Assembly: GCA_963842525.1 (NCBI GenBank)
Contig: CAWJGT010000009.1
Coordinates: forward strand, 32,001-96,000
DNA length: 64,000 bases
From: an uncultured Holophagales bacterium
Lineage (GTDB): Bacteria; Acidobacteriota; Thermoanaerobaculia; Multivoradales; UBA5704
Direction of reading: 5' to 3'
The notes under the pieces are model-generated. The model did no database searches and had not been told where the DNA came from. It saw only the letters and a program-made list of their open reading frames with translations. The position numbers were made by a program, and so were the translations under genes. Below are positions 38,313 to 64,000 of the stretch, in pieces; positions within the stretch are counted from its first letter, which is position 1, and each line of letters starts with the position of its first letter.

Positions 38313-38323
38313 CAGGCGTCGCC

Positions 38324-44800: not shown

Positions 44801-46098
44801 AGAGGTTCGCCCTGCGGAGAACACTGGTCTCGAAGGAAACCGAGTTGGCGCCGAGATCAGGATCGGGTTCAGGTTCGACAGCGGCCACCAGGATGGTGCT
44901 TTTTACAACGCTGTCGTCCTTCGCCGACGGCTCCACTCTCACGGTAAATGAGACCTCGGCGCTTTCATGGGCAGCAATCGTGGCGATTGTGGGGTTTGTG
45001 CAGAGAACTACTCCAACTTGTTGAGACTCGCATCGCGAGTTCGGTTTCACATCGCCCTGCAGTGCGTCGGTCATCACAACCCGCGTGGCGTCGGAGGGGC
45101 CGGCGTTGTGCACTCGGAATTTGTAGGTGAGGACCCTGCCAGCGACGACTGCTTCGGGCAGAGCAAGCGTCTCGATCGACAGATCGCTTATGGCGATGAC
45201 CTCTGTGGTCACTGTGTTGCTATTGTCGTCGGGAATGGGGTCACCCTCGTTGGCTTTCACACTTGCGGTGCTGGGCAGCACGTGTTGCCCTGCTTGGTTC
45301 AACTCGCCGCGGGTTGCCGGGTGCACCTTAACAGTGATCTCTATCGTTTGCGCCGAGGTATCGACCGCCAGGTTGCCGATGCTACACAAGACGGTCCGTC
45401 CACTCCCGGTGCAGTTGGGGCTTGCCGACACAAACTGGACCCCCTCGGGGAGGGTTTGCGTAATCTCCACTCCGGTAGCGTCCAGGGCTCCTCGATTGGT
45501 TACGGTCAGCCTGTACTTCAGGTCCTTGCCTGCCACGACGGTATCCGGAGAGGCGATGTCCAGCATCAGGTCGGGCGTCGGATTGTCGCCGGTGACCGTG
45601 AGCGTGTAAGCGCCACAGTGCTCGTCGCTCGTCGAGTCGACGACGAGGTAATAGATACCGGGATCGGGATCGTAGTGTGCCGCAGGGATCTCCTCGACTT
45701 GCGAGCCGATGAAGTCGGTCGAGTTACTGACGCAATTGCCATTCTCATCACTACATGACTTGATCAAGGCGAGCACGAGGTCGGCTGGTTTCTGAACGTC
45801 CAGGCGGAAGGCGACCCTATTCCCCTCATGCAGCCATACCTTGTAGATGGCGTCTTCGCCTGAGTACGTGACGTTCGGGATGGTGCAGGTCCCTGAGTTG
45901 TAGGAGGTCAAATTGGGCATCAAGCTGCAGGTGTCACTTTCGTGTTTGAAGTCAGGAGCAAGAACTTCGATCTGAGCGGGCGCATTGGGGGCAGGACACT
46001 CGTTCGAACGGTGCCTGGCTCCATGCTGGCGCGGCAAGGGCCGCATTGATCGCGAGTACCGCAAGGCCGAAAGTCCGAGGATTTCTGTGTGTTTCCAT
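41884..46098 (-). CDS. Giant secreted DUF11-repeat protein; frameshifts near 46005, 43900, 42630 and 41940
   Basis: Signal peptide METHRNPRTFGLAVLAINAALAAPAWSQA; six DUF11 repeats (DL...VVAG..L.Y...V.N.GPSDA); two ~190-aa C-terminal repeats. Confidence 0.78.
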
Positions 46099-46109: not shown

Positions 46110-47495
46110 CTAGAACCGGAAGCCCGAAGAAAGCGCGATCACGCTGACCCGCTCCGAATGATCGATGGCGGCGTCGATCTGGAGGCGTCGCAGCGCCATG
46201 CCAATGCCGGCCGTGTAGTGCATCTGATCGCCTTGGCGCCGAAACACCGCGCGAAAACCCACGTTGTCACCTTCGAACCGCAGGCTGTGATCCGGTTCGT
46301 ACCAGGCTCCTGCTCGTAACGTGAGGACCGGCCAGTGCCGGAGGAACGCGTATTCCATGCCGAGATGGAGCTCGTCGGCGTCATCGATCTCGAAGCGCTT
46401 CAGGTCCTGCACGAAGCGGTCCAACTCCTGCGGCGGCCCCGAAAAGAAAGTTTCCAGACCGAAGATATCGACGAAACCGTCCGTGAGCTCGGAATAGCGA
46501 ACGCGATCGTAATCGAAGGCCAGGCGGAAGGCGTCGCTGGGCCGGAACGCGAAGCCCACACCATAGACGTCCGGCACGTGGAAAACTGCTTGCTGAGCAC
46601 GTGGCGTAAACGGCAGCAACGCGCCAGGCTCGGATTGGCTGCGCGCCTGGAAGCTGAAGTCCGGCCCCTGCCGGTAGACGCCCCCGGCGCTCCACCTTTT
46701 CTGTGGGCTCTCCCAGAGAACGCCGGCGTTTACTCCCAAATCGTTGTCATCACCTTGTTGTGTCTGGGAGTTCACCAGCGGGTCGGAGGCGAAGTCGGGT
46801 GAGGCGGTCAGGTTTGGTAGATAGCGCAGGGCCGTGGAGTCGATGGCGAAATCGTAATAGGACACCGCCACGCCCAGCGAGAACCCGCCTCCCAGGCGGC
46901 AGGCAGCGGCGCCGCCATAGGCGGCCACCTCGACGTCCATGCGGTTGCGCAAGGCTGCGAGGCGGCCGTCGAGCGTTCCGGGGATGCCCAGCGGGTTGCG
47001 GCCACGGGTCAGGACCAGGTAGGCCCCAAAGGTGGAGAAATTCGCTTCAAAGTTCACCACCTCGTGGCGATACAGGGCGAAGGACCAGTTGCGGTAGGGA
47101 TGGACATACGAGAGGAAGGAAAGGCCCGTCACCTGATCCTCGGCCTGGCCATCGCGCAGGCCGGGGAGGGTGTCCTCACCGATCATTGTGATTGCCTGGC
47201 CCTCGATTCTGCCACGGTCGGTGAATTCATGGGTGAAGGTCCAATGCCGCGTTTCGATCAGGGCCTCGGGCGCGGTGATGGTGGTGAGCCCGGCCGGGTT
47301 GGTATAGGCGGCGCTGGCATCGAAGGCGAGGGCCAGGAAGGCGCCGCCGAGCGCCAGATTGCCGGCACCCGGTGTGGAAAAGTTGAAATAGACCCCGGCG
47401 TTGGTCTCGAGATTCGTCTGCGCTGCGAGCGGATGCTGCCAGAGAATGCAGAGCAGGACCGGCGCCAGGCGGAAGCGCATGCGGCCCGGGCTCAT
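46110..47495 (-). CDS. FadL/TodX-like outer-membrane beta-barrel
   Basis: FNFSTPGA.NLALGGAF.ALA.DASAAYTNPAGL; C-terminal aromatic GFRF. Confidence 0.85.
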   Translation of the reverse strand: MSPGRMRFRLAPVLLCILWQHPLAAQTNLETNAGVYFNFSTPGAGNLALGGAFLALAFDASAAYTNPAGLTTITAPEALIETRHWTFTHEFTDRGRIEGQAITMIGEDTLPGLRDGQAEDQVTGLSFLSYVHPYRNWSFALYRHEVVNFEANFSTFGAYLVLTRGRNPLGIPGTLDGRLAALRNRMDVEVAAYGGAAACRLGGGFSLGVAVSYYDFAIDSTALRYLPNLTASPDFASDPLVNSQTQQGDDNDLGVNAGVLWESPQKRWSAGGVYRQGPDFSFQARSQSEPGALLPFTPRAQQAVFHVPDVYGVGFAFRPSDAFRLAFDYDRVRYSELTDGFVDIFGLETFFSGPPQELDRFVQDLKRFEIDDADELHLGMEYAFLRHWPVLTLRAGAWYEPDHSLRFEGDNVGFRAVFRRQGDQMHYTAGIGMALRRLQIDAAIDHSERVSVIALSSGFRF

Positions 47496-50682: not shown

Positions 50683-51282
50683 TCAAGGCCGTGCTGACCA
50701 GGGCGTCACCGTGCCGATGATGAAGCGAGGAACCCTCATCTCTATCGCCGTCATCACGCCTTCGCAGACCTCTCGGTGAGTCAGCCACCGGGAGCCCTCA
50801 GGGCCCTGGACGAATCCGAGGATGACCTCGTGGTACTCGATACGGGGGAACTGTTCGAAGCTCGTGCGCCACCCCCGTTCAGGGCTCGCGGGATCGACGG
50901 CCTGGCTGCTCAGCAGGTGGAAGTACGGGCAGGCTTGGACCGGGGTTGCCACTGCCCCGGCGATGGCGAGAGGTGCCTCCGGGGCGGTGCTGTGGATCCA
51001 GACTACGCATGGCCCGATCGGCCCGAAGCGCTGCCGCGCCTGCAGCAGCGCCTGGAGCAGCCCTCTGGTGTCGCGATAGTCGACCGAGATCGGGTGGATC
51101 CGACAACCCCCACCCGCCCTTGCCTCCTCCTGCAGCGACGAGAGCCTCTCCCGCTTACGCCCCACGACGGAGACCACGTCCGCCCGTAGCGCCAGGGCGA
51201 GAGACACTCCCTTCAACATGCCTGTCCCCCCCACGACCAGAGCATGACTCCCAAGCCGCGGATTTGACTTCATTTCTGCCAT
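50683..51282 (-). CDS. Short-chain dehydrogenase-like protein
   Basis: HALVVGGTGML, VDYRD, VVWIH, VILGF....SRWLTH.EV..GV, IGTV.PW..RP. Confidence 0.82.
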   Translation of the reverse strand: MAEMKSNPRLGSHALVVGGTGMLKGVSLALALRADVVSVVGRKRERLSSLQEEARAGGGCRIHPISVDYRDTRGLLQALLQARQRFGPIGPCVVWIHSTAPEAPLAIAGAVATPVQACPYFHLLSSQAVDPASPERGWRTSFEQFPRIEYHEVILGFVQGPEGSRWLTHREVCEGVMTAIEMRVPRFIIGTVTPWSARP

Positions 51283-51299: not shown

Positions 51300-51328
51300 T
51301 TGACGAGCTCCAAAGTTTATTATAGAAT
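51300..51328 (+). promoter_or_regulatory. Sigma70-type promoter for the peptide operon
   Basis: TTGACG-N17-TAGAAT in an AT-rich patch about 90 nt upstream of the peptide ATG. Confidence 0.7.
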
Positions 51329-51416
51329 ACTCTTGCAGCCTGTTGAGTATAGCCAATTGGGGAAATCTTTATCTCCGGGCATGGTGCCCGGATGACGCGC
51401 TCGGAAAGGAGCCCAT

Positions 51417-51650
51417 ATGGCTGCCCAAAAGAACCAGTACCAGACCGGGACGGCTCGGCGCCCTCGCTTCTGCGTTGTGGCCGAGAGGTCGCTTGCCGTC
51501 TTCAACGAACGTTCGGAGGATGAGATCGTGCGAGCCCAGGCGCAGTTCAGCGACGACATGGTCAGCGCGCTGGAGTCGATGGTCAAGGCGGCTCGGGCCG
51601 GCCAGCTCGAGGGCCGGGCGGCGCTCGCGCTGGAGGCCGTTGCCTGGTAA
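51417..51650 (+). CDS. 77-aa small protein, putative precursor/scaffold peptide ending in ALEAVAW
   Basis: AAAGGAG RBS at 51405-51411; first gene of the operon; followed by a stem-loop. Confidence 0.75.
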   Translation: MAAQKNQYQTGTARRPRFCVVAERSLAVFNERSEDEIVRAQAQFSDDMVSALESMVKAARAGQLEGRAALALEAVAW

Positions 51651-51672
51651 GTGGACGTCCTGAGCTCTGAAA

Positions 51673-51703
51673 CCGGCCTGCCAGGCGGGCCCTGGCGGGC
51701 CGG
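51673..51703 (+). promoter_or_regulatory. Intergenic stem-loop after the peptide gene
   Basis: CCGGCCTGCCAGG-CGGGC-CCTGGCGGGCCGG, a 13-bp stem with one G-U pair and no U-tract. Confidence 0.55.
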
Positions 51704-51714
51704 CTTGCACGAAA

Positions 51715-53553
51715 ATGGCTTACTCACTCGAACGACAACCTCTTCTTCAGCCGCGATCGGCTCCGGCGCAGCGCATGTGGCGCGTGGGCAGCCGGCCTTG
51801 CGCGCAGGGCCTTGAGCCCTGCGATCTTCGGCTTGCCGTCCGTCCGGACAACCTTGAGACATTCGCCTCTCTCAGGGCGATCTTGGACCAGTTGGCAGGG
51901 TTCGCGCGGCCGGAGCAGCGGCGGCAGCTCGACAAGCTGGAAGACTATCTTCGCGAGGCCTGTCCAGGACCTTCCAGCGACCAGGCTGGCAGCCACGGAC
52001 GGCTGCTCACGGATTCCGTAACTTTCGCGATCATGCGCCGGATCAGCCGGGAGAGCTTCTATACGGCCCGCGTGATCGATCTCAGCGCGAGGTTGATGAA
52101 CGAGATCCTCGGCCGGATCCCTGGCTGCACGCGGGTGCATGTCGAGGATGTGGACCGACTCGACCGGCCGACCCTCAAGGCGCTGGCCCGGGCGGTCCTC
52201 TTGGTGGAACAGAAGCATGGCTTCTCCTGGGTATGGCATTCGATGAGCGATCCGCTCGCCTCTCCGGCAGGGAGCGGCGAAGGCCTCTTCCTCGCTTCCC
52301 GGAAGCAGCTCCTCCGGCAGCTTGCCGAAATCCTCTCGCCGACGCTCTGCCGCGAAGCGGAACCGATACCCCTGAGCGTCGGACACGGCTGCAGCCCGGC
52401 TGCCATCGATCAGGTCAGCGCGGCGCTCGTCCTGCAGAACTACGATGCCTGCTTCCTCTGGCTCGAGCCCCTTCTGCAGAGCTGTGGCGGCCCCGAGCTG
52501 GCGGAGGGCCTGCGCCTCCTCTCGCTCGCCACGGTTAACATCGGCCGCATCCGGGAGGCTCTGGAACAGCTCAGCCTTGCCGAGGAGAAGACGGACCGGG
52601 GTGGGCGCCGGGCTCACCTCTGCTACCTCCAAGGCCTGATCGAGGCAAAGAGGGGCTACGACCTCGCCGCCAGCACGAGCCACTACCAGCGGGGCCTTGC
52701 CGCGCTCGGGCAAGGAGGAGCAGGAGAGGACCTCCCCCTGGAGCAAGGGTGGCTGCTCAACGGCCTGGCCCTCAACGAGGCGATCCTGTGGCGCCGGAAT
52801 GCGGCCGCGGTCGACCACTTCCACCGAGCGTTCTCACTCGAACGCGACGCCTTCGGCCTGGTGGCCGAAGGGAAGGACCCTGCGAGGACATACCTTCGCT
52901 TCAACCTCCTGGCCAATACGACCTTCCTCCTGGAGATCCAGGGCAACTATCCGCTCGCGATCGACACCTTCAAAAAGGTGTTCGAGCTCGAGTTGGAGGA
53001 TGCTTCGGAGAAAAGGGAACGCTGGCGCAGCACTGTCGGTTACCGGATCGGCGTCCTTCATTTTCGGGCTGGAGCCCTGGAGGAAGCACACCGGTGCCTG
53101 TGCGATGCCGCAGAGCAGGACTCCTACACGGAGAGCTGGGCGACCCAAGAGCGCATTCTGCGCGCCCGCGGTCTCGTCGAGCTCGATCTGGGTTCTCCCG
53201 AGCAGGCTGCCGGTACGTTCTCTCAGGGGCTGCAGATCTGCCGGGAGGCGCGCTCTGCCGAGGGGGCACGCGAGCACGGGCGTGGGCTGCTGGCCACACT
53301 GCTTGCGAACGGCAAAATGCGAGAGGCGCGGGACCTGGCGGGATGCCTCGCTTCTGAAGAGGGGGTAGACCTCGTCTCGGAGGGGGAGCTCGACCGCGCG
53401 CGAACCGGCGCGGCCCTGCGGCCGCGCCCTCCCTCGCCCAAGCTGCCTGCTTATTTTCCGGAAATCGACCTCGAAGGGATACCGTGCACCGATCTCAACC
53501 GGTTTCTTGGGAAGGCGCAGGATCGGGACCAGGTGGTCCCTTGGCGGGATTAG
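51715..53553 (+). CDS. Large TPR protein with a degenerate STAND-like N-terminus
   Basis: Walker-B-like HVEDVDRLDRPTL with no Walker A; multiple TPRs; C-terminal PSPKLPAYFPEIDLE..P..DLNRFL. Confidence 0.8.
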   Translation: MAYSLERQPLLQPRSAPAQRMWRVGSRPCAQGLEPCDLRLAVRPDNLETFASLRAILDQLAGFARPEQRRQLDKLEDYLREACPGPSSDQAGSHGRLLTDSVTFAIMRRISRESFYTARVIDLSARLMNEILGRIPGCTRVHVEDVDRLDRPTLKALARAVLLVEQKHGFSWVWHSMSDPLASPAGSGEGLFLASRKQLLRQLAEILSPTLCREAEPIPLSVGHGCSPAAIDQVSAALVLQNYDACFLWLEPLLQSCGGPELAEGLRLLSLATVNIGRIREALEQLSLAEEKTDRGGRRAHLCYLQGLIEAKRGYDLAASTSHYQRGLAALGQGGAGEDLPLEQGWLLNGLALNEAILWRRNAAAVDHFHRAFSLERDAFGLVAEGKDPARTYLRFNLLANTTFLLEIQGNYPLAIDTFKKVFELELEDASEKRERWRSTVGYRIGVLHFRAGALEEAHRCLCDAAEQDSYTESWATQERILRARGLVELDLGSPEQAAGTFSQGLQICREARSAEGAREHGRGLLATLLANGKMREARDLAGCLASEEGVDLVSEGELDRARTGAALRPRPPSPKLPAYFPEIDLEGIPCTDLNRFLGKAQDRDQVVPWRD

Positions 53554-54489
53554 ATGGAGACCGTGCTCTTGCTCGGTGCCGGCCATGTCGGCACTTTTTC
53601 CGCCCGCGCCGTCGCGGAGCAGGGCGCCCGGGTGGTCGCGGCCGACGTGCAGCCGGCCCCTGGATTCTTCTCACGTTTTGGGCCCAGGGAAGCGGCCGAT
53701 CTGATCGCCATTGACATCCTCGATCCGGGCGCGGTGGAACGCCTGATCAGAGCTCGTAGAGTGGATCGCGTCATCCTGGCGGCCGGCCCTACGCGCGAGG
53801 CGAGCGCGCGCGATCCCGAAAGGGTATGGCGGATCCATATCGAAGGCGCCCTCGCCGTCGGACGGGCTGCCCGCGCCACGGGTGTCCGACGCCTCGTTTA
53901 TGTCAGCAGCTTTGCGGTTTACGGCCGGCCGGAAGCCGATCGCATCGACGAGACGATGCCGGCTCGGCCCCGATCTGACTACGGTCGGGCCAAGGTGGCC
54001 GCGGAGGATGTGCTGATCCGGTTTCGTGACCAGGGGTTGGACGTCCGGATCCTACGTCCCTGCGGCCTCTACGGACCTCATCGTCCGGGAGCGGGGAGCC
54101 AGTCGGCCAAGGTGATCGACGATCTGCTCACGCACTCTCTGAGGGGTGAGAGGATGATGATCCAAGAACAGGCATTCGCGGACGAATTCCTCTATGTGAA
54201 AGACCTGGGTCGTGCCATTGCGCTTGCGACGCTCGGCGAGCCCCGTTCTGAGGACTGCGTCTTCAATGTCGGTCCCGGCCAGACGACGAGCGCGGCAGAG
54301 TTGTGCCGGGCCATGCGCCGCGCCGTGCCCGCGGCGCAGCTCGTCCTTCACGAAAGCGGGAACGCAAAACGCTTACCCTGCGCGCCGCTGCGGATCGAAC
54401 GCATCCGCGCCGCTCTCGGCTTCGAGCCGAGCTACAGCCTCTCCCGAGGGCTGTGCGATTACCTCCACGAGACCGGGCTGCGGCCATGA
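53554..54489 (+). CDS. NAD-dependent epimerase/dehydratase
   Basis: LLLGAGHVG, VYVSSFAVYG, YGRAK, FLYVKD, FNVG. Confidence 0.9.
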   Translation: METVLLLGAGHVGTFSARAVAEQGARVVAADVQPAPGFFSRFGPREAADLIAIDILDPGAVERLIRARRVDRVILAAGPTREASARDPERVWRIHIEGALAVGRAARATGVRRLVYVSSFAVYGRPEADRIDETMPARPRSDYGRAKVAAEDVLIRFRDQGLDVRILRPCGLYGPHRPGAGSQSAKVIDDLLTHSLRGERMMIQEQAFADEFLYVKDLGRAIALATLGEPRSEDCVFNVGPGQTTSAAELCRAMRRAVPAAQLVLHESGNAKRLPCAPLRIERIRAALGFEPSYSLSRGLCDYLHETGLRP

Positions 54490-55136
54490 CGGCGCTTTCC
54501 GAGCCGCTCGGCAGGCTCGCCGTGAGCCGGATCGAGGATGTCAGGCCGGCGACCGTGCTGGGCATCTGCGCGAGCCTGAAACCGGCACCGGGACGTCAGG
54601 GGCGGTCCGCGGTGCGCTCGCTCCTTACCTTTGCGCTCGACCACCTGGCCAACGTCTACCCCGAGGTGGCCCTCCTCGACCTGCGGGACCACCCGCCGCC
54701 TTCCTTCGACGGGAGGATGCCCCACGACTACGACGATCCGGTGTTGCAGCTCCTCTGGCCGTGCGTGGACCGGGCAGGAGCGTTGCTGCTCGCCGTCCCC
54801 GCCTACTGGTCGGGGGTCTCCGGAGTCTTCAAGAACTTCGTCGACGTCCTTTGCGGCCCGGCGTATGACCTCGAGTGCCCAAGCGTTACCGTCTTCTCCA
54901 ACAAGCCGGTCGGCCTTCTGGTCGTCGGCGCAGAGGAGGCCAGCACTCGTGCCGGCGCGGACCAGGCCCGGATGACCCTCCTCGCAACGGGAGCCCGGCT
55001 GGTGGGGCAGCCGGTCCTTGTCGCCGATCCACGCTCCCGTCCAATGCAGATCGAGCTCGTCTCCCGCGAGCTCGCAGCGCTCGCCGGAGAGCTCGCCCAG
55101 CACGCCTATGGCCAGGTCGTCCGGGAGGGTCCGTGA
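54486..55136 (+). CDS. NADPH-dependent FMN reductase
   Basis: GICASL, PAYWSGVSGVFKNFVD, KPVGL. Confidence 0.88.
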   Translation: MTALSEPLGRLAVSRIEDVRPATVLGICASLKPAPGRQGRSAVRSLLTFALDHLANVYPEVALLDLRDHPPPSFDGRMPHDYDDPVLQLLWPCVDRAGALLLAVPAYWSGVSGVFKNFVDVLCGPAYDLECPSVTVFSNKPVGLLVVGAEEASTRAGADQARMTLLATGARLVGQPVLVADPRSRPMQIELVSRELAALAGELAQHAYGQVVREGP

Positions 55137-56252
55137 GTCACATTCCCGGCCGGGCGACTGCGGAGGGCACGAGGCGCTTCACCCGCCGGTTTTCTCGGGT
55201 GGCCCCGGAGTTCTTCCGCCTCACCGGGGACCTGACCGTTTCATCGGTGGGGCTGGGTACGTTTCCGGGACGGGCCGACGAAAGTACCGACGCAGGATAT
55301 GCGGCTGCGATCGAGCGGGCGCTGGAGTTGGGATGCAATGTGATCGACACCTCTGTGGCCTATCGCCACCAGCGCAGCGAACGTGTGATCGGGAAGACGC
55401 TGGCACGGCTCATCGGCTGCGGGAAACAGGACCGCGATTCAATGGTGGTCGCTTCGAAGGCCGGTTTCATCCCCTTCGACAGCGAATATCCTGGAAGCCC
55501 CGGGCAGTACTTCGAGGAGACTTTCATACGCACCGGCATCGTCGACCCGGCGGAAGTGGTCGGCCGAGGGCACTGCCTGGCTCCTGGATTCCTGCGGCAT
55601 CAGATCGCGACGAGCCGGCGGAACCTGTGCTGCGCAACGGTCGACATCTACTTTCTCCATAATCCAGAAACACAGCTCCGCGAAGTGGACAGGCTGGGAT
55701 TCCGAACCCGGCTCCTGACCGCTTTCGAAACCCTGGAGCGCGCAGTCGCCGACGGGAGCATCGGCATGTACGGGGTGTCGACCTGGAGCGGCTTTCGTTC
55801 TCTTCCGGAGTCTGGAGACTATCTGCCCCTGTGTGACCTCGTCCGCTGGGCGGCCGAGGTCGGCGGCCCGGATCACCATTTCCGGGTGATCATGGTGCCT
55901 TTCAATCTGGCCATGCCAGAGGCGTTCGCCCTTTCGAACCAGCGGCCCTCCAGGGAGCTCCCCCTGGACCTCCCTGCTTCGGGCGGCGGCCGATCTCGGG
56001 ATCACCGTGCTGGCTGGCGCCTCGCTGCACCAAGCCCGCCTCACTTGCGGCCTGCCCGCGGAGGTCCATGCCACGGTCGGAGGGGAGCTGCCCAGCAACG
56101 CGCAACGGGCCCTGCAATTCGTACGCTCGGCGCCGGGGCTCACGACTGCTCTCGTCGGAATGAGCCGCACCGAGCACGTCGAGGAGAACCTGGCTCTCGC
56201 TGCGGTCCCTCCGCTGTCCGACGGCTGCTTCGACGAGCTCTTCGATCCCTGA
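55133..56252 (+). CDS. Aldo/keto reductase; frameshift near 55960
   Basis: SSVGLGT, IDTSVAYR..RSE, VASKAG, DIYFLHNPE, ALVGMS..EHVEENL. Confidence 0.88.
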
Positions 56253-56277
56253 GGATTTCGATTCCGGAGGTGCTGAC

Positions 56278-57369
56278 ATGACAGAGACGACGACCCAAGC
56301 GCAACCGCGGACCTTCCCGGGTGGGGTGGATCCGTCCGTCCTGCTGAAAGGAGGAGAGGCTCAGGCGTTGCTGGCGAGACACTCCGAAGCGGCGCACAGT
56401 TTCCGGCAGGCCATCGCCAGCGCGGAGGAGGCTCTGCGGGCGGACCCGGAGGACACGGCCGCGCGATGGGCGCAGGCCCGGGCGCTGCTCTGCCTCGGCC
56501 GGCTGCAGAGCGCTCTGACCCAGCGCGACGAAGCGAGGTCCACGTTCAGGCAGGCGATCGGCGTGCATGAAGAGGTTCTTCGCCGGATCCCCGGCGAGAC
56601 CGTTTCGCGCCACGAGCAGATCTTCATGCTGCTCAGCCTGGGCCGGCTCCATGCCGGGATCGGAGAGCCTGAAACGGCAGCCGCTTACTACCAGCGGGCC
56701 GGCGTTCTAGGATGCGACGCGCTGCGGGCAAGCCCTGATGACGAAGGAGCCCGCGGTCACATGGCGAGCACGTTCGCAAGCCTCGGTCGACTGCAGGCGA
56801 AGCTCTCCCAGCCCGGGCAAGCGTCGCAGAGCTATCGCGCGGCCCTCCTTCACTTCGACGAGCTTTTGCGGCGCGCGCCCGAGAATCCGAAAGTGCACTC
56901 CGGACGGGCGAGCACGTGGTTGAGCCTGGGCCGCCTGCAGGCCTCTCTGGCCGAGAAGGACGAGGCGGTCGAGTCCTTTCAGGCCGCTGTCTCCGCATAT
57001 GACGAGGTTTTGCGGCGCGCTCCCGGAGACGTGTCGGCCCTGGTCAACCGGGGGAACGCCCTCGCCCGGCTGGCGGAGATGCAGGCCGAGCTTTCGCGGC
57101 CTGATCAGGCGGAGGAGAGCTGCAAGCGGTCGATCTCCTCATCCGACCTCGCCCTGCAACGAGCACCGGCTTCCGCGGACGCCCACAGCAACAAGGGCAG
57201 TGCGCTGTTAAGCCTCGGCCGTCTGCAGAGCGGCTGGGGAGACAGCGAGGCGGCCGTCAGCACTTTCCGAATGGCTCTCGAGGAATTCGAGCGGTCCCTC
57301 GAGATCGCTCCCGACAATGACGAGGTCCGCAGCCTCCAGGAACGCCTCCGGGCCATCCTGGAGTGGTGA
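56278..57369 (+). CDS. Tetratricopeptide repeat protein
   Basis: About seven repeats of L.SLGRLQ...A...(F/Y)..A...DE.LRRAP. Confidence 0.88.
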   Translation: MTETTTQAQPRTFPGGVDPSVLLKGGEAQALLARHSEAAHSFRQAIASAEEALRADPEDTAARWAQARALLCLGRLQSALTQRDEARSTFRQAIGVHEEVLRRIPGETVSRHEQIFMLLSLGRLHAGIGEPETAAAYYQRAGVLGCDALRASPDDEGARGHMASTFASLGRLQAKLSQPGQASQSYRAALLHFDELLRRAPENPKVHSGRASTWLSLGRLQASLAEKDEAVESFQAAVSAYDEVLRRAPGDVSALVNRGNALARLAEMQAELSRPDQAEESCKRSISSSDLALQRAPASADAHSNKGSALLSLGRLQSGWGDSEAAVSTFRMALEEFERSLEIAPDNDEVRSLQERLRAILEW

Positions 57370-57395
57370 GCTGAGCCCGCCACGCCGGAGGTGCC

Positions 57396-58055
57396 GTGAA
57401 CAAGACCGACTTCGTGCGGCAAGAGGGCTACCTGTCTCCCGCCGTGCAGCAGCTTCTCTTTTCTCTACCCAGGCGCTGCGAGTTCCTGGTCACCCATGCG
57501 GGCCCGCCTGCGAAGCGCATTCTCGACGTGGGCTGCGCCGGCGGGCATATCGCACTCCTGCTGATGAGACTGGGCCACGATGTAACGGGGATCGAGCTGA
57601 ACGCCGAGATGGCCGCGGAGGCCCGCGCCCGCGGCGTCCAGGTCCTGGAACACGACCTGGAGGAGCCGCTGCCGTTGCCGGACGCGTCCATCGAGGTGGT
57701 CCACGCCTGCGAAATTATCGAGCACCTGTTCGACACGGAAGGATTCCTGAAGGAGTTGCATCGCGTTCTGGCGCCCGATGGTGTCCTGATCCTCAGCACA
57801 CCGAACCTCAACAGCCTGAGGAACCGATTCCGCGTCCTGTTCGGGCTGCACCTGCCCATGTGGGGTGCCTTCCCGGAGGACCGGCACGGCTGTCATGTGC
57901 GGGTGCTCAACCGCACCAAGGTCGCCCATCTGCTCGCGCGGACGGGTTTCCGCCTCGAGCTCGTCCTGGGCATGAACCAGTCGCGGTGGCGCTATCTGCT
58001 GGATCACTTTCCGACCTGGAGCGAGATGCTTCTGATCAAGGCACGGAGGGCCTGA
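57396..58055 (+). CDS. Class I SAM-dependent methyltransferase
   Basis: ILDVGCAGG, GIEL, EIIEHL, RVLAPDGVLILSTPN. Confidence 0.92.
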   Translation: MNKTDFVRQEGYLSPAVQQLLFSLPRRCEFLVTHAGPPAKRILDVGCAGGHIALLLMRLGHDVTGIELNAEMAAEARARGVQVLEHDLEEPLPLPDASIEVVHACEIIEHLFDTEGFLKELHRVLAPDGVLILSTPNLNSLRNRFRVLFGLHLPMWGAFPEDRHGCHVRVLNRTKVAHLLARTGFRLELVLGMNQSRWRYLLDHFPTWSEMLLIKARRA

Positions 58056-58060
58056 TCGCG

Positions 58061-58777
58061 ATGACCGCCCCGAGGATCGGCTCACCTGCATGGGAAGAGC
58101 CACCAACCTACGAGGACATCGTCGATGTAGTCATCGGATTCCTCCGGCAGAAGAAAGCGCTGCCCGGCCAGGGGCCACAGACTCCCTGGGACGCCTTCCT
58201 GCGGCTCTCCGACCGGGTCCATGAGACCTACGAGGTCCCTGCGACGACGCTCACCCCCGTGATGCGGCGCCTCCTCTTCGCCTTGGGCTTCGCCGCCCGC
58301 CCGCGATGCCTCGCCGGAATCGGCGTCTACGTTGGATACGCTTGGTCCTGGCTGCTCCGGGACCGCACCGATCTTGCAGCGTCCCCCTTCTTCGAGAGTG
58401 CCGTGGGGGTTGACCTGGATGCCGATGCGGTCTGTTTGGCGGCGCGGAACTGTGCCGTGCTCGGGCATGGCGATCGTCTGCGTTTCCTGAAATCCGACGG
58501 AGTCCGTGCGCTCCGCCACTGGGACGGGGAGGTCGACCTCCTCTATCTGGACATCGACGACGAGCAGAAAGGCAAATCCGGCTATCGTGACGTCGTCTCT
58601 GCTGCTTTACCGTTCATGCGCTCCGGTGCGCTCGTCCTGGCTCATGACCCTTGTGTTCCGCGCTTTCAGGAGGATTTCAAAATCTATCATGATTTCGTAC
58701 GGACCTCGGGGCGCTTCGAGGGCCTGTGGGTGCTTCCGGTCGACCCGTGCGGCCTGTCCGTCGCTCTGGCGCGCTGA
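58061..58777 (+). CDS. O-methyltransferase-like protein
   Basis: GIGVYVGY, GVDLD, DG, DLLYLDID....K..Y, MRSGALVLAHD. Confidence 0.82.
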   Translation: MTAPRIGSPAWEEPPTYEDIVDVVIGFLRQKKALPGQGPQTPWDAFLRLSDRVHETYEVPATTLTPVMRRLLFALGFAARPRCLAGIGVYVGYAWSWLLRDRTDLAASPFFESAVGVDLDADAVCLAARNCAVLGHGDRLRFLKSDGVRALRHWDGEVDLLYLDIDDEQKGKSGYRDVVSAALPFMRSGALVLAHDPCVPRFQEDFKIYHDFVRTSGRFEGLWVLPVDPCGLSVALAR

Positions 58778-58780
58778 GGC

Positions 58781-59825
58781 ATGGAACCTATCGCCGATCT
58801 GGGCCTGGGTCACCTCCGGATCCGCGGGCCGGAGGACATGGAAAGGCCGGCGATCAGCGCGGGCTATGGTCCGGCTGAGGGCCTCCGGGAAGCTCCGCGA
58901 GGCGATCGCGGCATGGGAAGGGGTCTCGGTCGAGGAGGTCTGCGTCACAACGGGAGCCTCCCTCGGTCTCGTGGCAGCCTTGACCGGACTGCCTCGTCCC
59001 TGCTCCGTTCTGTGCCCCCGTCCCTATTATCCTGCGTATCCTTCACTGGCCGAGTTGCTCGGTCTGAAAACCCTGTTCTATGACCTGGAGCCGGAGCTCG
59101 GATGGCAGCCCGATCCGCTGGCCCTCGCGCGCCTTCTGCGTGAAGACTCGCGGGCCCTGCTGTGGAATTTCCCGAGCAATCCAACCGGAACGATCCCGGA
59201 CCCCGCAGTTCTCGCCAAGGTGCGGGAGCTCGTGCAAGAGGCCAACCTGCTGGTGCTCAGCGACGAGGTCTATGCTGATTTCATCTATGACGGCCATGCC
59301 TTTCCGGACATGCGGGCAGCCCTCGGGCACTCTCACGCGATCCGGCTGCGGAGCTTTTCCAAGCTCTTCAGGATGGCGGGGGAGCGTTTGGGTTACGTGA
59401 TCGGCGATCCTGATCGCTTGCGCGGTATCCGCCGCAATCACTGGCTGCTGGCGATGTCGCCGCCCGCAGCGGCACAGGCCCTGGCCCTCGCGGGAATGCG
59501 CCTCGATCTGTCCCGGCAGACCGGGGAGCTGCGCAGAGAGCTCTCCGTTTTGCGCGATCTGGCAGCACGCATTCTGGATGGCTGTGGCAGAGTCCGCTTT
59601 TCCAGGCCGCCGGCCGGCATCTTCTACTGGATCGAGGTCCTGGGTTGCCCGATCGATTCTCGGGCCCTCGTCCGGCTCTGCGCGGAGGAGGCCGGGGTGC
59701 TCGTCCAACCGGGAGCGGTTTTCGGCATCGGAGAGCCTGTCTACCTGCGGGCGTCGTTCGCCGTGGAGCGGGACGAGATGGGCCGCGGTTTCGAGTCACT
59801 GGTGAATCTGTTGGAGCGCCTGTGA
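58781..59825 (+). CDS. PLP-dependent aminotransferase class I/II; frameshift near 58880
   Basis: LREAIA, VTTGA, NFPSNPTG, SDEVY, SFSKLFRMAGERLGY. Confidence 0.9.
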
Positions 59826-59875
59826 GCCGGCGTGCGCGGCCACCATAGAGGATCTGACATATAGGAGGCCGAGAG

Positions 59876-60451
59876 ATGCGTGGACCTGTGCAGATTCTAT
59901 TGATCAGTGGCAGCCTCCGACAGATATCGTACACTCGCGTGCTCGCAAACGAGGCCCAGACGGCTCTGGACCGGCGGGGTGTGAGGACGATCCACTGGAG
60001 CTTGAGCGAGACGGCGCTTCCGATTGCCGATCCGGCCTTCCACGACGATCCGGCGAGTCACCCCGACAGAGCCGTCCGCAGCCTCGTGACCGCCGCGGAC
60101 GAAAGCGATGCGTTCATCCTCGCCTCTCCGATCTACCACAACTCATACTCAGGCGTGCTCAAGAACGCACTGGATCACCTTGCTATTGCACAATTCCGCT
60201 ACAAGCCTGTGGGATTGATGAGCCATGGCGGAAACCGTAGCCCTCAGGCGGTAGATCACCTGCGGATCGTGGTCCGTGGGCTCCTGGGGGTCGCGACTCC
60301 GACACAGGTCTGTACAGCGGCTTCCGACTTTCAGATGGCCTCCGAAGGGTATGCGCTCCAATCCGAAGACATCTTGCAGAGAATCGAACGCTTCGCCCTG
60401 GAGCTGGTCGTCTTCGCAGAGGCCTTCCGCGACCTCCGCAGAGCCGGCTGA
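59876..60451 (+). CDS. NADPH-dependent FMN reductase (azoreductase-like)
   Basis: ISGSLR..SYT, SPIYHNSYSGVLKNALD, KPVGL. Confidence 0.92.
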   Translation: MRGPVQILLISGSLRQISYTRVLANEAQTALDRRGVRTIHWSLSETALPIADPAFHDDPASHPDRAVRSLVTAADESDAFILASPIYHNSYSGVLKNALDHLAIAQFRYKPVGLMSHGGNRSPQAVDHLRIVVRGLLGVATPTQVCTAASDFQMASEGYALQSEDILQRIERFALELVVFAEAFRDLRRAG

Positions 60452-60715: not shown

Positions 60716-61606
60716 ATGGGCAAGAGGATCTTCCTCTTTCTGTTGACCAACCTGGCTGTCGTGGTGGTGCTCTCGACGATCCTGAGCCTGCTCGGGGTGG
60801 GGAGCTACATCGGTGCCGACGGCAGCCTCCAGCTCGTGCCGCTGGCGATTTTCTGTTTCGTCTGGGGCATGGGCGGCGCCTTCATCTCCCTGCAGTTGTC
60901 GCGCTGGATCGCCAAGCGGGCCATGGGCATTCAGCTCGTGAACGGCCAGATGGGGCATGCCGAGCTCGACTGGCTCCACACCACGGTGGCGAACCTGGCG
61001 CGGCAGGCGAACCTGCCGATGCCGGAGGTCGGCTATTACGAGTCGGCGGAGGTCAACGCCTTCGCGACCGGTCCCAGCAAGAAGCGCAGCCTGGTGGCGG
61101 TGTCGACCGGGCTGCTGGGGAACATGACCCACCCGGAGGTCGAAGCGGTGCTGGCGCATGAGGTCGGCCACATCGCCAACGGCGACATGGTCACGATGAC
61201 GCTCCTCCAGGGGGTCATCAACGCCTTCGTCCTCTTCTTCGCGCGGGTCGCGGCCTTCGCGGTGCGTCTGGCCGTCCCCGAGAAGCTCGCCTGGATCGCC
61301 GGCTTCGTCACCATGATCGTGCTGCAGATCGTGCTGGGCATCCTCGGCTCGCTGGTGACCGCCTGGTACTCGCGCCAGCGGGAGTTCCGGGCCGACGTCG
61401 CGGGCGCCACCCTGGGCAGCCGGGACGGCATGATCTCGGCCCTGCGCCGGCTGATGACCACGACCGAGCGGATCGACACCTCGAACGCCGCCCTGGCCAC
61501 GATGAAGATCGCAGGCAAGAAGAGCTGGCTCCACGCCTTCTCCACCCACCCGCCGCTCGAAGAGCGCATCGCCGCCCTCGAAACCGGCCGGTACCAGGCT
61601 CGCTGA
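60716..61606 (+). CDS. htpX: Protease HtpX
   Basis: KRIFLFLLTNLAV, NAFATG, AHEVGHIANGDMVTMTLLQG, SRQREFRAD, STHPPLEERI. Confidence 0.96.
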   Translation: MGKRIFLFLLTNLAVVVVLSTILSLLGVGSYIGADGSLQLVPLAIFCFVWGMGGAFISLQLSRWIAKRAMGIQLVNGQMGHAELDWLHTTVANLARQANLPMPEVGYYESAEVNAFATGPSKKRSLVAVSTGLLGNMTHPEVEAVLAHEVGHIANGDMVTMTLLQGVINAFVLFFARVAAFAVRLAVPEKLAWIAGFVTMIVLQIVLGILGSLVTAWYSRQREFRADVAGATLGSRDGMISALRRLMTTTERIDTSNAALATMKIAGKKSWLHAFSTHPPLEERIAALETGRYQAR

Positions 61607-61876: not shown

Positions 61877-64000
61877 TCACCGCCAATCGTGGCTCGGCAC
61901 CGCCGCCACTCTCTTCAGGGACCAGAACCTCTCCCCCTTGACCGAGATCGTGCCGTCCCGCTTCTGGAGGGTGCCTTCGACGACGAGGCCGGGGGAGCCG
62001 ACGATCAGCTTGCGGTGTTTCTGGAGGAGGTCGGGAGAGACGACGGCCTGCGACATGCCGGTCTCGTCTTCCAGAGTGATGAAGAGGAGGCCCTTGGCGG
62101 TGCCGGGACGCTGCCTCACGATCACCGAGCCGGCGGTGCGGACGCGCTGGCCGTCCCGCAGCTTGTCGAGGCCGGCGGCGGTGGTGACTCCCTTCTCCTG
62201 GAGCTGGTCGCGGAAATAGACAAGGGGGTGCGGGCCCAGGGTGAGCTGGATGCCCGCGTAGTCGGCCTGGGTCTCTTCGACCGCGGTCATCTCCGGGAGC
62301 GGTGAGGGCTCCGGGTCTTCCAGATGGTCGAGGAGCGGCCCGGCGGGACGGGCGCTCCGCGCCACCTGCCAGAGGGCGGCGCGGCGGGTCAGGCCGAAGG
62401 AGGCGAGGGCCCCGATCTCGGCCAGGGTGGCGATCTCGTTGGAGTTGAGACGGCAGCGTTCAATCAGGTCGTCCACGCTCTGGAAAGACTGGCGCTTTCT
62501 CTCTTGCTCGATGGTCTTTCCCATCTTGTCGCGCAGGCCGCGTACGAAACGGAAGCCGAGGCAGAGGGCCCCCACCGGCGGCACCTCGCCGGTCCGCCGG
62601 TCCCGCTCGCCTTCACGGATGTCCCGGTCCTCCCAATGGCAGCGGTATCCCGAGACCTGGACGTCCACCGGCCGGATCTCGACGCCGCGGCGCTGCGCAT
62701 CCTTGACCAGGGTGGCCGGATGGTAGAAGCCCATGGGCCAGGCATTCAGGAGCCCCAGGAAGAAGGCCGTGGGATGGTGGGCCTTCAGGTAGGCGCTGGC
62801 ATAGGCGATCAGGGCGAAGCTCGCGGCGTGCGACTCCGGGAAGCCGTAGAGGGCGAAGGAGGTGATGGACTGGACGATCTCGTCCTGCGCCTTGCCCACG
62901 ATCCCCTTTTCGCTCATCCCCCGGCGGAGCTTCTCCACGATCGCGTTCATCCGCTCCACCGATCGTTTGGAGCCCATGGCCCGCCGCAGCTCCTCGGCCT
63001 CGCCGCCGGTGAAGCCGGCTGCCACCATGGCCACCCGCAGGAGCTGCTCCTGGAAGATCGGCACGCCCAGGGTGCGCTTGAGGATCGGTTCCAGGCTCGG
63101 GTGCGCGTAGATCACCGGCTGGCGGCCGTTGCGCCGTTCGAAGTAGGGGCTCGCCATCTTGCCCGCGATCGGACCGGGCCGGATGATCCCTACCTGGATC
63201 ACCAGGTCGTAGAACTTTTCCGGATGGTTGCGCGGCAGCGACGCCATCTGCGCCCGGCTCTCCACCTGGAAGACGCCCACGGTGTCCGCCGCCCGCAGCA
63301 TCCGGTAGACCTTGGGATCGTCCGGCGGCAAGTGAGAGAGGTCGACGTTCACGTTTTCGTGCAGGCGGATGGTCGGCACCATCTCCTCCAGGGCGTTGAG
63401 CATCCCCAGACCCAGGAGGTCGACCTTGATGATGCCCAGGTCGGCGCAGTCGTCTTTATCCCACTGGACGACGACCCGGCCGGGCATGGAGGCGGGCTCC
63501 AGGGGGACGACCTCGTCCAGGCGGCCGGCGGCGATGACCATGCCCCCGGAGTGCTGGCCGAGATGGCGGGGGAGGTTGTGGATGCGCACCCACTGGTCGC
63601 GGAAGAGCTGGATGCGCGGCTCCTCGGGATCGAAGCCGGCGGCGGTCATCTCGTTGTCGAACGACTTCGGATCGCCGCTCGCCACGTCGTAGGTCCAGCT
63701 CCCGAGCTGCTTGGCGAGCCGGTCCACCTGCTCGGGGGAGTAGCCGAAGACCTTGGCCACCTCGCGCGTGGACGACTTGTCGCGATACGTGATGACGTTG
63801 GCAGTCATGGCCGCGCCGCGCGGGCCGTAGCGCTGGTAGACGTACTGGATGACTTTTTCGCGCTGCGTGCCCGATGGCAGGTCGAGATCGATGTCCGGCC
63901 ACTCGCCGCGCTCTTCGGAAAGAAACCTTTCGAAGAGCAGCTCCATCTTGACCGGGTCGACCGCGGTGATCGAGAGGGCATAGCAGACCGCGCTGTTGGC
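61877..64000 (-). CDS. dnaE2: Error-prone DNA polymerase DnaE2, 3' part
   Basis: LLFERFLS.ER.EWPDIDLD, PRHLGQHSGG, QWDKDD, FQVESRAQM, YGFPESHAASFA, RQRPGTAKG. Confidence 0.95.
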   Translation of the reverse strand, partial: ANSAVCYALSITAVDPVKMELLFERFLSEERGEWPDIDLDLPSGTQREKVIQYVYQRYGPRGAAMTANVITYRDKSSTREVAKVFGYSPEQVDRLAKQLGSWTYDVASGDPKSFDNEMTAAGFDPEEPRIQLFRDQWVRIHNLPRHLGQHSGGMVIAAGRLDEVVPLEPASMPGRVVVQWDKDDCADLGIIKVDLLGLGMLNALEEMVPTIRLHENVNVDLSHLPPDDPKVYRMLRAADTVGVFQVESRAQMASLPRNHPEKFYDLVIQVGIIRPGPIAGKMASPYFERRNGRQPVIYAHPSLEPILKRTLGVPIFQEQLLRVAMVAAGFTGGEAEELRRAMGSKRSVERMNAIVEKLRRGMSEKGIVGKAQDEIVQSITSFALYGFPESHAASFALIAYASAYLKAHHPTAFFLGLLNAWPMGFYHPATLVKDAQRRGVEIRPVDVQVSGYRCHWEDRDIREGERDRRTGEVPPVGALCLGFRFVRGLRDKMGKTIEQERKRQSFQSVDDLIERCRLNSNEIATLAEIGALASFGLTRRAALWQVARSARPAGPLLDHLEDPEPSPLPEMTAVEETQADYAGIQLTLGPHPLVYFRDQLQEKGVTTAAGLDKLRDGQRVRTAGSVIVRQRPGTAKGLLFITLEDETGMSQAVVSPDLLQKHRKLIVGSPGLVVEGTLQKRDGTISVKGERFWSLKRVAAVPSHDWR

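Follow-up and report, generated by a model that had tools for sequence, protein, structure and literature searches.

The operon described here probably specifies a pearlin-like pathway in which the terminal Trp of a carrier peptide would be oxidized and tailored to a small quinone-type molecule without the involvement of a PEARL; no such enzyme would be needed, because the Trp is already encoded as the final residue of the 77-aa peptide. The closest known systems are two pearlin pathways of the pyrroloiminoquinone type: amm (ammosamide), of Streptomyces sp. CNR-698, and bha, of Alkalihalobacillus halodurans C-125 (PMC9850906, PMC11117183, PMC12424672). Most likely, the operon represents a PEARL-less variant of this ammosamide-type route, to which the preliminary description had already referred, rather than an unrelated pathway, because its 612-aa protein fits what has been published on BhaC1/AmmC1 (PMC9850906) and its FMN reductases parallel BhaH/Amm17, the NADPH:FMN quinone reductase of the bha and amm clusters (PMC11117183). 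For the same reason, the earlier statement that the operon encodes no known RiPP class-defining enzyme is not supported. The proposal of a peptide-scaffolded pathway acting on the terminal Trp gains from the conserved linkage and the invariant Trp documented below, but the pathway is most likely of the known amm/bha type.

Within the window, by which we mean the whole 64,000-nucleotide stretch of DNA analysed, the peptide gene is followed by nine closely set genes separated by intergenic gaps of −4 to +50 nt (Table 1). The view of these genes as a compact operon is sound, and the families initially given for the nine genes were borne out by domain matches at all nine. GGAAAGGAG lies directly upstream of the peptide ATG at 51417, where a strong ribosome-binding site had been reported. 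The two other signals noted at the outset are present but less telling. The TTGACG-17 nt-TAGAAT sequence, taken for a near-consensus promoter, is accompanied by a second promoter-like site facing the divergent gene; because the count of such sites in the 10-kb region (2) is not above that in shuffles (1.0 ± 0.9), the promoter match alone is weak. The stem-loop after the peptide gene has a perfect 13-bp stem, but its energy is ordinary for G+C-rich DNA (z −0.93 against dinucleotide and −2.0 against mononucleotide shuffles), and in 6 of 15 loci, the peptide stop is followed, at a distance of 13–39 nt, by a helix with 11 or more base pairs.

Table 1. Features of the operon and its upstream region (positions in the window).
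Feature	Position	Strand	Evidence and remarks
up199, 199-aa Rossmann-like protein, divergently transcribed	50683..51282	-	weak adh_short match, residues 13-89, E 0.0017
Divergent promoter-like sites	51300..51346	plus 51300-51328, minus 51346-51319	10/12 consensus positions each
77-aa carrier (scaffold) peptide, C-terminus ...ALEAVAW	51417..51650	+	homologues, dN/dS
Perfect 13-bp hairpin in the gap between the peptide and 612-aa genes	51673..51703	+	
612-aa protein (degenerate STAND/AAA+ N-domain, TPR domain, invariant tail); candidate BhaC1/AmmC1-type Trp hydroxylase	51715..53553	+	weak TPR matches
Extended SDR, NAD-dependent epimerase/dehydratase family, with YxxxK	53554..54489	+	PF01370, E 1.5e-36
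NADPH-dependent FMN reductase 1, azoreductase/quinone-reductase-like	54486..55136	+	FMN_red; core gene
Aldo/keto reductase (AKR), frameshifted near 55960	55133..56261	+	Aldo_ket_red; 3/10 complete loci
363-aa all-TPR protein, accessory	56278..57369	+	seen in window, L002 and L005 only
SAM methyltransferase 1, UbiG-like	57396..58055	+	Methyltransf_11/23; 6/10 complete loci
SAM methyltransferase 2	58088..58777	+	Methyltransf_24; core, 10/10 complete loci
Class I/II PLP enzyme, SFSK lysine motif, frameshifted near 58870-58885	58781..59825	+	Aminotran_1_2; core gene
NADPH-dependent FMN reductase 2, MsuE/SsuE/ArsH-like	59876..60451	+	FMN_red; core gene

Both frameshifts belong to this assembly, that of the AKR gene falling at a run of five C; the two genes are unbroken in the related locus L002, where the AKR has 371 aa (5146–6261), and contigs from a soil-metagenome run holding 37% of the sampled words span neither site. 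The top NCBIfam profile for the PLP enzyme is GntC/VioD-like, with a score under the cut-off of that profile; among solved structures, aromatic and aspartate aminotransferases come out as the best relatives of the enzyme.

The peptide ORF (GC3 0.80) is a real gene, because it evolves under purifying selection (dN/dS 0.15–0.33 over five pairs; 0.155 against L002). Six homologues of the peptide were found among 5.8 billion proteins; five further database homologues end in Trp, and four of these five were judged, from contigs being equal in length, to share a contig with a homologue of the 612-aa protein. Two metagenome scans yielded nothing with the peptide profile and 15 loci with the 612-aa profile. 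Adjacency to a gene for a helical peptide that ends in Trp, with a hydrophobic and then a small residue ahead of it, is a mark of the BhaC1/AmmC1 class, and a small Trp-bearing ORF adjoins the 612-aa family gene in 17 of the 18 other loci, together with the enzyme genes, so that the co-occurrence check proposed at the start came out in favour of a peptide-scaffolded pathway; the exception, L003, has less than 190 nt of upstream sequence. As to the EAVAW tail, the Trp is invariant and is the last residue at 15 of the 17 peptide loci, but in two Rhizobium plasmid peptides it is internal, being followed by five residues, AGA[SA]V; unless the tail is trimmed, a free carboxylate at the C-terminus cannot therefore be a general feature. 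Ahead of the Trp, position −2 holds V, I or A and position −1 holds A, K, R, S, P or E, giving ends such as ...LEAVAW and ...LRAIAW. The long peptides (67–81 aa) carry no net acidic charge, that of the window having 10 D+E against 10 K+R. Cys19, conserved in the first seven peptides, was considered as a second modification site and rejected, as F, Y or A takes its place in other loci.

The 612-aa protein has only weak TPR matches in Pfam and otherwise gives nothing in Pfam or NCBIfam; in particular, no canonical flavin-binding or oxygenase domain was recognizable with these databases. In its predicted structure (pLDDT 86.5), an alpha/beta N-domain precedes a TPR superhelix. The N-domain resembles STAND ATPases, with MalT as the top match (8bob_D, Z 8.6, rmsd 3.6 over 140 residues; 6mfv_A, Z 7.4), and one family member (P0150) has an AAA_16 match, whereas the PDB fold search returned nothing beyond generic TPR and STAND matches. 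The Walker A P-loop GxxxxGK[ST] is absent from the 612-aa sequence and from the family consensus; an invariant RRISRES motif, placed between helices at residues 94–108 and 115–132, may occupy roughly the position expected of the P-loop. Across 31 family sequences, with identity down to 29%, 36 columns are invariant, mostly polar, and the family shares an invariant C-terminal tail, PSPKLPAYxPEIDLEGIP. K312 and K576, 264 residues apart, are the only invariant lysines, and N397, 85 residues past K312, is invariant as well. Judging from these patterns of conservation, the family looks like an enzyme, beyond a mere repeat protein; in one member (P0075), it is naturally fused to an SDR.

BhaC1 and AmmC1 are TPR-containing, FMN-dependent hydroxylases of the C-terminal Trp in pearlin pathways; they act on a Trp at the end of a helical acidic peptide, neither has a recognizable flavin domain, and Lys391/Asn472/Lys654 of BhaC1 and Lys350/Asn432/Lys602 of AmmC1 hold the Trp carboxylate and indole NH (PMC9850906). 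Like these enzymes, the 612-aa protein falls within about 600–700 aa, contains TPRs and lacks a canonical flavin domain, which is expected, because BhaC1 itself had not been predicted to be a flavoprotein. The Lys-Asn-Lys spacings, compared by numbering only, are 85 and 179 in the 612-aa protein, 81 and 182 in BhaC1, 82 and 170 in AmmC1, and 83 and 172 in a Bacillus family member (P0156); on the same basis, the outer lysines are 264, 263 and 252 residues apart in the 612-aa family, BhaC1 and AmmC1, respectively. A family member with its tail lysine at position 654 would have about 686–697 aa, which fits the BhaC1 band of about 80 kDa. From this architecture, residue spacing and genomic context, set against the published description of the enzymes, we infer that the 612-aa protein belongs to the BhaC1/AmmC1 family. 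Neither Pfam nor NCBIfam has a BhaC1/AmmC1 model; the published residue numbers had no exact counterpart in those of the best 150 profile matches that reach 500 aa, and a profile built from low-G+C members retrieved nine proteins, with neither A. halodurans nor Streptomyces sp. CNR-698 among their sources.

The same fold lends itself to another reading, in which the pathway is peptide-scaffolded but relies on no BhaC1-type oxygenase: the 612-aa protein would be a TPR adaptor of STAND origin without catalytic activity, or a wholly new enzyme, and the Trp would undergo other chemistry, for example, methylation or a PLP-type reaction that leaves the indole unoxidized. A STAND/AAA+ fold followed by TPRs is a typical adaptor or sensor architecture, the protein shows no recognizable domain for flavin binding or oxygenation, and its homology to BhaC1 is putative. 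We nevertheless consider this reading unlikely: the core cassette includes two flavin reductases, yet no other candidate oxygenase; the invariant residues, mostly charged or polar, together with the invariant tail suggest a pocket over a surface; the Lys/Asn/Lys spacing agrees by numbering with the published enzymes; and a missing flavin domain did not reveal BhaC1 as a flavoprotein either. Far less probable still is that the peptide and the TPR protein form a signalling pair, akin to an RRNPP or MalT-like receptor and its ligand, beside an ordinary small-molecule redox operon. The Foldseek TPR matches do include the peptide receptors NprR and Rap, and MalT heads the matches of the N-domain, but DNA-binding and output domains are missing from both the peptide and the 612-aa protein, no signal for export was noted in the former, the fusion to an SDR and the persistent linkage of peptide, 612-aa protein and five enzymes across phyla are at odds with such a role, and an invariant terminal Trp is foreign to these systems. 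A complex prediction for the 612-aa protein with the peptide, run without controls, gave scores of 0.48, 0.27 and 0.17, the mark being 0.32, and speaks neither for binding nor against it.

In all 10 loci that are long enough, the core comprises the peptide, the 612-aa protein, the SDR, an FMN reductase, the Methyltransf_24 enzyme, the PLP enzyme and a second FMN reductase. Accessory parts are the 363-aa TPR protein and the AKR, each present in 3 of 10 complete loci. The expectation that nearby genes may contribute holds for the SDR-like up199, of which a homologue occupies the same place in L002, lies within the operon between both methyltransferase genes in L004 and L009 and, more weakly (E 1e-9), accompanies the Rhizobium clusters. 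It does not hold for the PhyH gene next to the operon (49177 to about 49983, minus strand), which, like DUF6265, was dismissed as a cluster member, there being no homologue in any other locus. No LanB/PEARL-like gene occurs in the window, all ten operon genes being otherwise assigned, which upholds what had been read from the sequence; a PF04738 search of the genome matched only on contig 3 and on contig 9 at about 1.526 Mb, so that its two Lant_dehydr_N loci are far off, the one on contig 9 being about 1.4 Mb from the window (32–96 kb). The genome holding L002 contains one full-length LanB match, on contig C169, and the large ORFs scanned in the metagenome loci belong to families other than LanB.

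The chemistry that we infer from these genes would begin with binding of the helical peptide by the TPR domain of the 612-aa protein and threading of its C-terminal Trp into a pocket that has K312, N397 and K576 as its lining. There, the protein would hydroxylate the indole with FMN, as BhaC1/AmmC1 do, and oxidation to a hydroxyquinone would follow. The two NADPH:FMN reductases may, like BhaH, take the product back and forth between quinone and hydroquinone, or they may provide reduced flavin; the methyltransferases would O-methylate the hydroxyls; and the PLP enzyme, the SDR and, if present, the AKR would carry out further tailoring. Possibly, the PLP enzyme brings in nitrogen, the task of a PEARL and glycine oxidase in the known pathways. 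PLP aminotransferases normally require a free amino acid or keto substrate, and a role of this enzyme on a peptide-bound residue is therefore speculative. A peptidase, cluster-encoded in some variants (L007 and L017), would finally free the modified Trp. The window's version of the cluster has no conserved peptidase: the nearby M48 peptidase (60716–61606), a possible releasing protease, is kept in none of the loci, and a DUF5700 peptidase was not found elsewhere in the genome (96% complete).

The product might instead be an intracellular, peptide-derived redox cofactor, a Trp-quinone made from or on the peptide in the manner of mycofactocin and PQQ. In these systems, an oxidoreductase operon turns the C-terminal aromatic residue of a small ribosomal peptide into a redox-active molecule, and what defines each of them is a radical-SAM enzyme together with its RRE partner (MftC/MftB and PqqE/PqqD, respectively), neither of which is among the ten genes of the window. 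The window's version consists almost entirely of redox enzymes and lacks an exporter, an immunity gene and a peptidase, the peptide's helical part, ALE[SE]MV[KN]AAR, is much better conserved than usual leaders, and the BhaC1 product resembles TTQ and TPQ, which are quinone cofactors, according to its authors. We regard a cofactor as improbable, however, given that conserved partner dehydrogenases are missing and that distant variants encode features typical of secreted metabolites, namely exporters of the MatE or ABC type, a condensation domain, an AMP-binding enzyme and tailoring of the carbamoyltransferase type. Together with these exporters, the DUF5700 and M16 peptidases, the amino-acid decarboxylases of two kinds and the arylamine oxygenase of the AurF type in distant variants point to a released and exported amino-acid product. 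The distribution is very patchy as well, the cassette occurring in 1 of the 401 genomes that were sampled in the phylum and on conjugative plasmids with IS elements nearby, and suits an accessory metabolite better. Two name look-ups placed family members of the 612-aa protein in Bacillaceae and Streptomyces, though in neither source strain of BhaC1 and AmmC1, and the ESM Atlas holds matching Bacillota and Actinomycetota clusters of 610–777 aa; the cultured carriers belong to Rhizobium (R. leguminosarum, Vaf10 plasmid), Sphingomonas (S. psychrotolerans), Solirubrobacter (S. taibaiensis), Bacillus and Streptomyces.

If the pearlin-like reading is correct, trihydroxylation of a C-terminal Trp on peptides extends beyond the tRNA-dependent PEARL pathways and would be the hub of a wider group of small, mobile cassettes that occur in Acidobacteriota from soil, Actinomycetota, Alphaproteobacteria and Bacillota. 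It would also provide a mining rule (a small ORF ending in [VIA]xW beside a protein of about 600 aa with RRISRES and KLPAYxPEIDLE), a test case for amination or methylation of indole-quinones without PEARLs, and a first evolutionary origin, from a degenerate STAND ATPase and a TPR domain, for an orphan class of flavoenzymes. The system would be a compact one of seven genes that should reconstitute easily, and culturable carriers exist. Far more tentatively, and with doubt, we suggest a PEARL-independent route to Trp-derived methoxy- and amino-quinones, spread as a mobile cassette, in which a STAND-derived flavoenzyme would hold FMN at the former P-loop (RRISRES) with SsuE/MsuE-type reductases as partners, and the PLP aminotransferase, acting on the quinone, would install the aromatic nitrogen in place of aminoacyl-tRNA chemistry.

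Compared with STAND NTPases bearing TPR sensors (MalT, 8bob; 6mfv), the 612-aa protein has the same succession of an alpha/beta domain of nucleotide-binding type and a TPR array, but lacks the Walker A motif and any effector or DNA-binding domain and adds the invariant C-terminal tail. The closer parallels are with amm and bha. As in these clusters, the window encodes a small helical carrier peptide, in amm and bha with the C-terminal Trp as the sole residue worked on, and beside it a TPR protein of about 600–700 aa without a canonical flavin domain, along with an NADPH:FMN reductase, a methyltransferase and further late tailoring genes; in amm and bha, peptidases release the modified Trp (PMC9850906, PMC11117183, PMC12424672). 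The window peptide is about twice as long as BhaA-Ala-Trp, in which BhaA-Ala ends in ...APLALA ahead of its Trp, and is not net acidic. Whereas in amm and bha a PEARL adds the Trp from Trp-tRNA and nitrogen enters via further PEARLs and an FAD-dependent glycine oxidase, in the window no PEARL is present, no glycine oxidase was seen among the ten genes, the Trp is encoded in the peptide gene itself, and the cassette has three other invariant partners instead, namely a PLP enzyme, an extended SDR and a second FMN reductase.

The operon at 51300–60451 has the layout given in the preliminary description, with a promoter-like site, a 77-aa ORF and a stem followed by nine genes of the families listed in the table, all on the same strand and spaced by −4 to +50 nt. 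GGAAAGGAG lies directly 5′ of the ATG of the ORF. The promoter match is not above chance (2 sites versus 1.0 ± 0.9 in shuffles), and the energy of the hairpin is ordinary for DNA of 66% G+C (z −0.93). In 6 of 15 loci, a helix of 11 bp or more, differing in sequence between loci, starts 13–39 nt past the stop codon of the peptide gene; hence, the hairpin is recurrent but not universal. Frame changes occur in the aldo/keto reductase (AKR) gene near 55960, where there is a tract of five C, and in the PLP gene near 58870–58885, whereas both genes are unbroken in the closest relative, L002. An unrelated LanB-like gene of the same genome (G000, contig 3, 1392860–1394854) is likewise split over several frames, making it plausible that these breaks are indel errors of assembly rather than decay. 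Neither break in the operon is covered by the single public sequencing run in which this DNA occurs.

Features of the operon and other genes in the window (genes 1–9 are numbered from the peptide)
Position	Strand	Feature	Detail
558–2375	−	TIR + NB-ARC protein	
9700–11490		Amidohydrolase family	
11630–13189	−	CHAT + TPR-S protein	
14619–15809		AhpC/redoxin-domain protein	among amidohydrolase-family genes
15881–17449		Amidohydrolase family	
24451–25749		Amidohydrolase family	
36883–38361	−	DUF6986 protein	malate-synthase-like TIM barrel, E 7e-186
40214–41887	−	Molybdopterin xanthine-dehydrogenase-type subunit	
43902–46064	−	DUF11/CARDB repeat surface protein	720 aa; adjoins the channel gene
46110–47495	−	FadL/TodX-type outer-membrane channel	
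49177 to about 49983		PhyH	
50683–51282		up199	divergent, 199 aa, Rossmann-like
51300–51328		Promoter-like site	TTGACG-17-TAGAAT
51417–51650	+	Peptide	77 aa, ends ALEAVAW
51673–51703		Stem	perfect, 13 bp
51715–53553	+	Gene 1, 612-aa protein	weak TPR matches (Pfam)
	+	Gene 2, extended SDR	Pfam Epimerase, E 1.5e-36
54486–55136	+	Gene 3, FMN reductase 1	FMN_red (Pfam)
	+	Gene 4, AKR	Aldo_ket_red (Pfam)
	+	Gene 5, 363-aa TPR protein	TPR (Pfam)
	+	Gene 6, UbiG-like methyltransferase	Methyltransf_11/23 (Pfam)
	+	Gene 7, methyltransferase	Methyltransf_24 (Pfam)
	+	Gene 8, PLP enzyme	Aminotran_1_2 (Pfam)
59876–60451	+	Gene 9, FMN reductase 2	FMN_red (Pfam)
60716–61606	+	M48 peptidase	265 nt past last operon gene
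61877–63946	−	DNA polymerase III alpha subunit	C-terminal two thirds; rest past window end

Elsewhere in the window, TIR + NB-ARC and CHAT + TPR-S are combinations typical of conflict or defence systems, and the three amidohydrolase-family genes fall within a 16-kb span.

A search of 5.8 billion proteins returned only six homologues of the peptide, all with the VAW end and with a strongly conserved helix (ALESMVKAAR) in common; Cys19 is invariant in the first seven peptides but varies beyond them. Eighteen other loci of the 612-aa family were compared, namely, L002 from a Thermoanaerobaculia MAG, 15 metagenome loci and two of five matching Rhizobium plasmid records. A peptide homologue detectable by tblastn lies immediately 5′ of the large gene in 13 of them, and four distant loci (large protein 30%–33% identical) contain a shorter ORF of 34–48 aa ending in ...RAIAW, ...RSISW or ...RAIKW, which is acidic and directly 5′ of the large gene in L015, L016 and L017, and net basic and two genes upstream in L014. 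The proposed co-occurrence of the two genes is thus borne out in 17 of the 18 loci; the sole locus lacking a Trp-bearing small ORF, L003, stops less than 190 nt upstream. As for the EAVAW tail, its Trp is kept in all 17 loci and is the final residue in 15, whereas the preceding residues vary, and in the Rhizobium plasmids (L025 11380–11607 and L026 11458–11685) GAVAW is followed by five extra residues, AGASV or AGAAV. With the near-duplicates L004/L009 and L016/L017 merged, 13 of 15 distinct peptides have a terminal Trp. Judged by this conservation and by dN/dS values of 0.155–0.325 (five pairs), the ORF is a genuine gene that has been conserved.

Gene content can be judged in ten loci, one of them in the window. 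Common to all ten are the peptide, the 612-aa protein and the SDR, together with both FMN reductases, the Methyltransf_24 enzyme and the PLP enzyme. The UbiG-like methyltransferase is present in six, and the AKR and 363-aa TPR protein occur together in just three (the window, L002 and L005). Of the two nearby genes suggested to contribute, the SDR-like up199 belongs to the cluster, given that L002 has it too, that L004 and L009 carry it within the operon, and that weak homologues (E 1e-9) lie beside the two Rhizobium clusters; PhyH, like DUF6265, does not recur in other loci. In P0075 (824 aa), a member of the 612-aa family, the large protein is naturally fused to an NAD-dependent epimerase/SDR domain, implying that the two products are functionally tied. 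Other genes are specific to certain variants: a DUF5700 putative zinc peptidase within the L007 operon; DUF5700, an M16 peptidase and an ABC exporter in L017; a PLP-dependent amino-acid decarboxylase, condensation domain, AMP-binding enzyme, MatE, AurF-type arylamine oxygenase and carbamoyltransferase in L014; and, directly upstream in both Rhizobium clusters, a pyruvoyl-type decarboxylase with 94% identity from one plasmid to the other. The presence of such peptidases, decarboxylases and exporters speaks for release of a modified amino acid in free form and for its further processing. The cassette is rare: among 41 relatives, and again among 401 sampled genomes of the phylum, the window's own genome was the sole carrier. 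Yet it is present in several phyla and, in Rhizobium, on conjugative plasmids, flanked by IS66 and IS6 elements, which indicates horizontal spread.

The 612-aa protein has 58 homologues, itself not counted, and a profile of 31 homologues retrieved 184 cluster representatives at E <= 1e-30 among 1.84 billion; members occur in Bacillus, Pontibacillus, Brevibacillus and Streptomyces. A confident AlphaFold model (pLDDT 86.5, pTM 0.90) comprises an alpha/beta domain (residues ~8–235), a TPR superhelix and an invariant tail, PSPKLPAYxPEIDLEGIPxxDLN. Modelled alone (pLDDT 80.5), the N-terminal domain best matches MalT (8bob_D; Z 8.6, rmsd 3.6, 140 residues) and also the TPR-STAND protein 6mfv_A (Z 7.4), and AAA+ ATPases recur all the way through the 50 best matches; one family protein, P0150, passes the AAA_16 Pfam cut-off (33.8 versus 32.6 bits). 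The Walker A motif is absent from both the sequence and the family consensus. Judged by its position in the model, between helices 94–108 and 115–132, the invariant RRISRES may sit roughly where a P-loop is expected. The 36 columns invariant across 31 sequences (identity down to 29%) are mostly charged or polar, a pattern suggesting a pocket rather than a repeat scaffold.

BhaC1 and AmmC1, the FMN-dependent hydroxylases of C-terminal Trp in the bha and amm (ammosamide) pearlin pathways, likewise have no recognisable flavin domain (PMC9850906, PMC11117183). Their TPR cleft binds the helical carrier peptide, the C-terminus of which enters a tunnel where the carboxylate is gripped by lysines 391/654 (BhaC1) or 350/602 (AmmC1) and the indole NH by Asn 472/432 (PMC9850906); BhaC1 Lys391 was later found cross-linked to product (PMC11117183). 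The sole invariant lysines of the 612-aa family, K312 and K576, are 264 residues apart (263 in BhaC1 and 252 in AmmC1, by published numbering), and the invariant N397 lies 85 residues past K312, against 81 and 82 by the same numbering comparison; in the Bacillus member P0156, the Lys–Asn and Asn–Lys spacings are 83 and 172. The two FMN_red genes parallel the NADPH:FMN quinone reductase BhaH/Amm17 of the bha and amm clusters. The 612-aa protein thus probably belongs to the BhaC1/AmmC1 family, an assignment founded on architecture, residue spacing, substrate and context rather than on alignment, and the view that the operon has no known RiPP class-defining enzyme is probably wrong.

We propose that the peptide helix docks on the TPR domain and inserts its C-terminal Trp into a pocket formed by K312, N397 and the tail that carries K576, where flavin-dependent hydroxylation would yield a hydroxy-indole that oxidises to a hydroxyquinone. 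The FMN reductases would interconvert quinone and hydroquinone, a reaction shown for BhaH (PMC11117183), or provide flavin in its reduced form. Among NCBIfam profiles they come closest, below cut-offs, to MsuE/SsuE (reductase 2) and SsuE (reductase 1), partners of two-component monooxygenases. The Methyltransf_24 and UbiG-like enzymes would O-methylate ring hydroxyls, and the PLP enzyme may either introduce nitrogen or work on the released amino acid; it retains the SFSK lysine motif, its closest solved structures are aromatic and aspartate aminotransferases, and its closest NCBIfam profile, below cut-off, is GntC/VioD. With its arylamine oxygenase, L014 gives a hint that the pathway makes an aromatic amine. 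A peptidase would release the modified Trp, and the clusters of L007 and L017 encode candidates for this step; the window's genome yielded no DUF5700, and the M48 peptidase is not conserved by the cluster in any other locus.

Collectively, the comparative evidence (17 of 18 loci, the retained Trp and the core shared by ten loci) lends good support to the proposed pathway in which the terminal Trp of a carrier peptide would be tailored. As previously noted, no PEARL gene, encoding the LanB-like ligase that extends carrier peptides, is present in the window, and the two LanB-like loci of the genome lie on another contig or ~1.4 Mb away. Among the papers listed by full-text literature searches, none deals with such a PEARL-less cluster; the authors of PMC9850906 may already know such homologues. 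Trp is appended in the amm and bha pathways, whereas here it is encoded in the peptide gene; known pearlin pathways use a glycine oxidase, and none was found among the ten genes here; and the peptide is about twice the length of BhaA-Ala-Trp and not net acidic. The cluster is best labelled a new, PEARL-less form of the pearlin/BhaC1 pathway.
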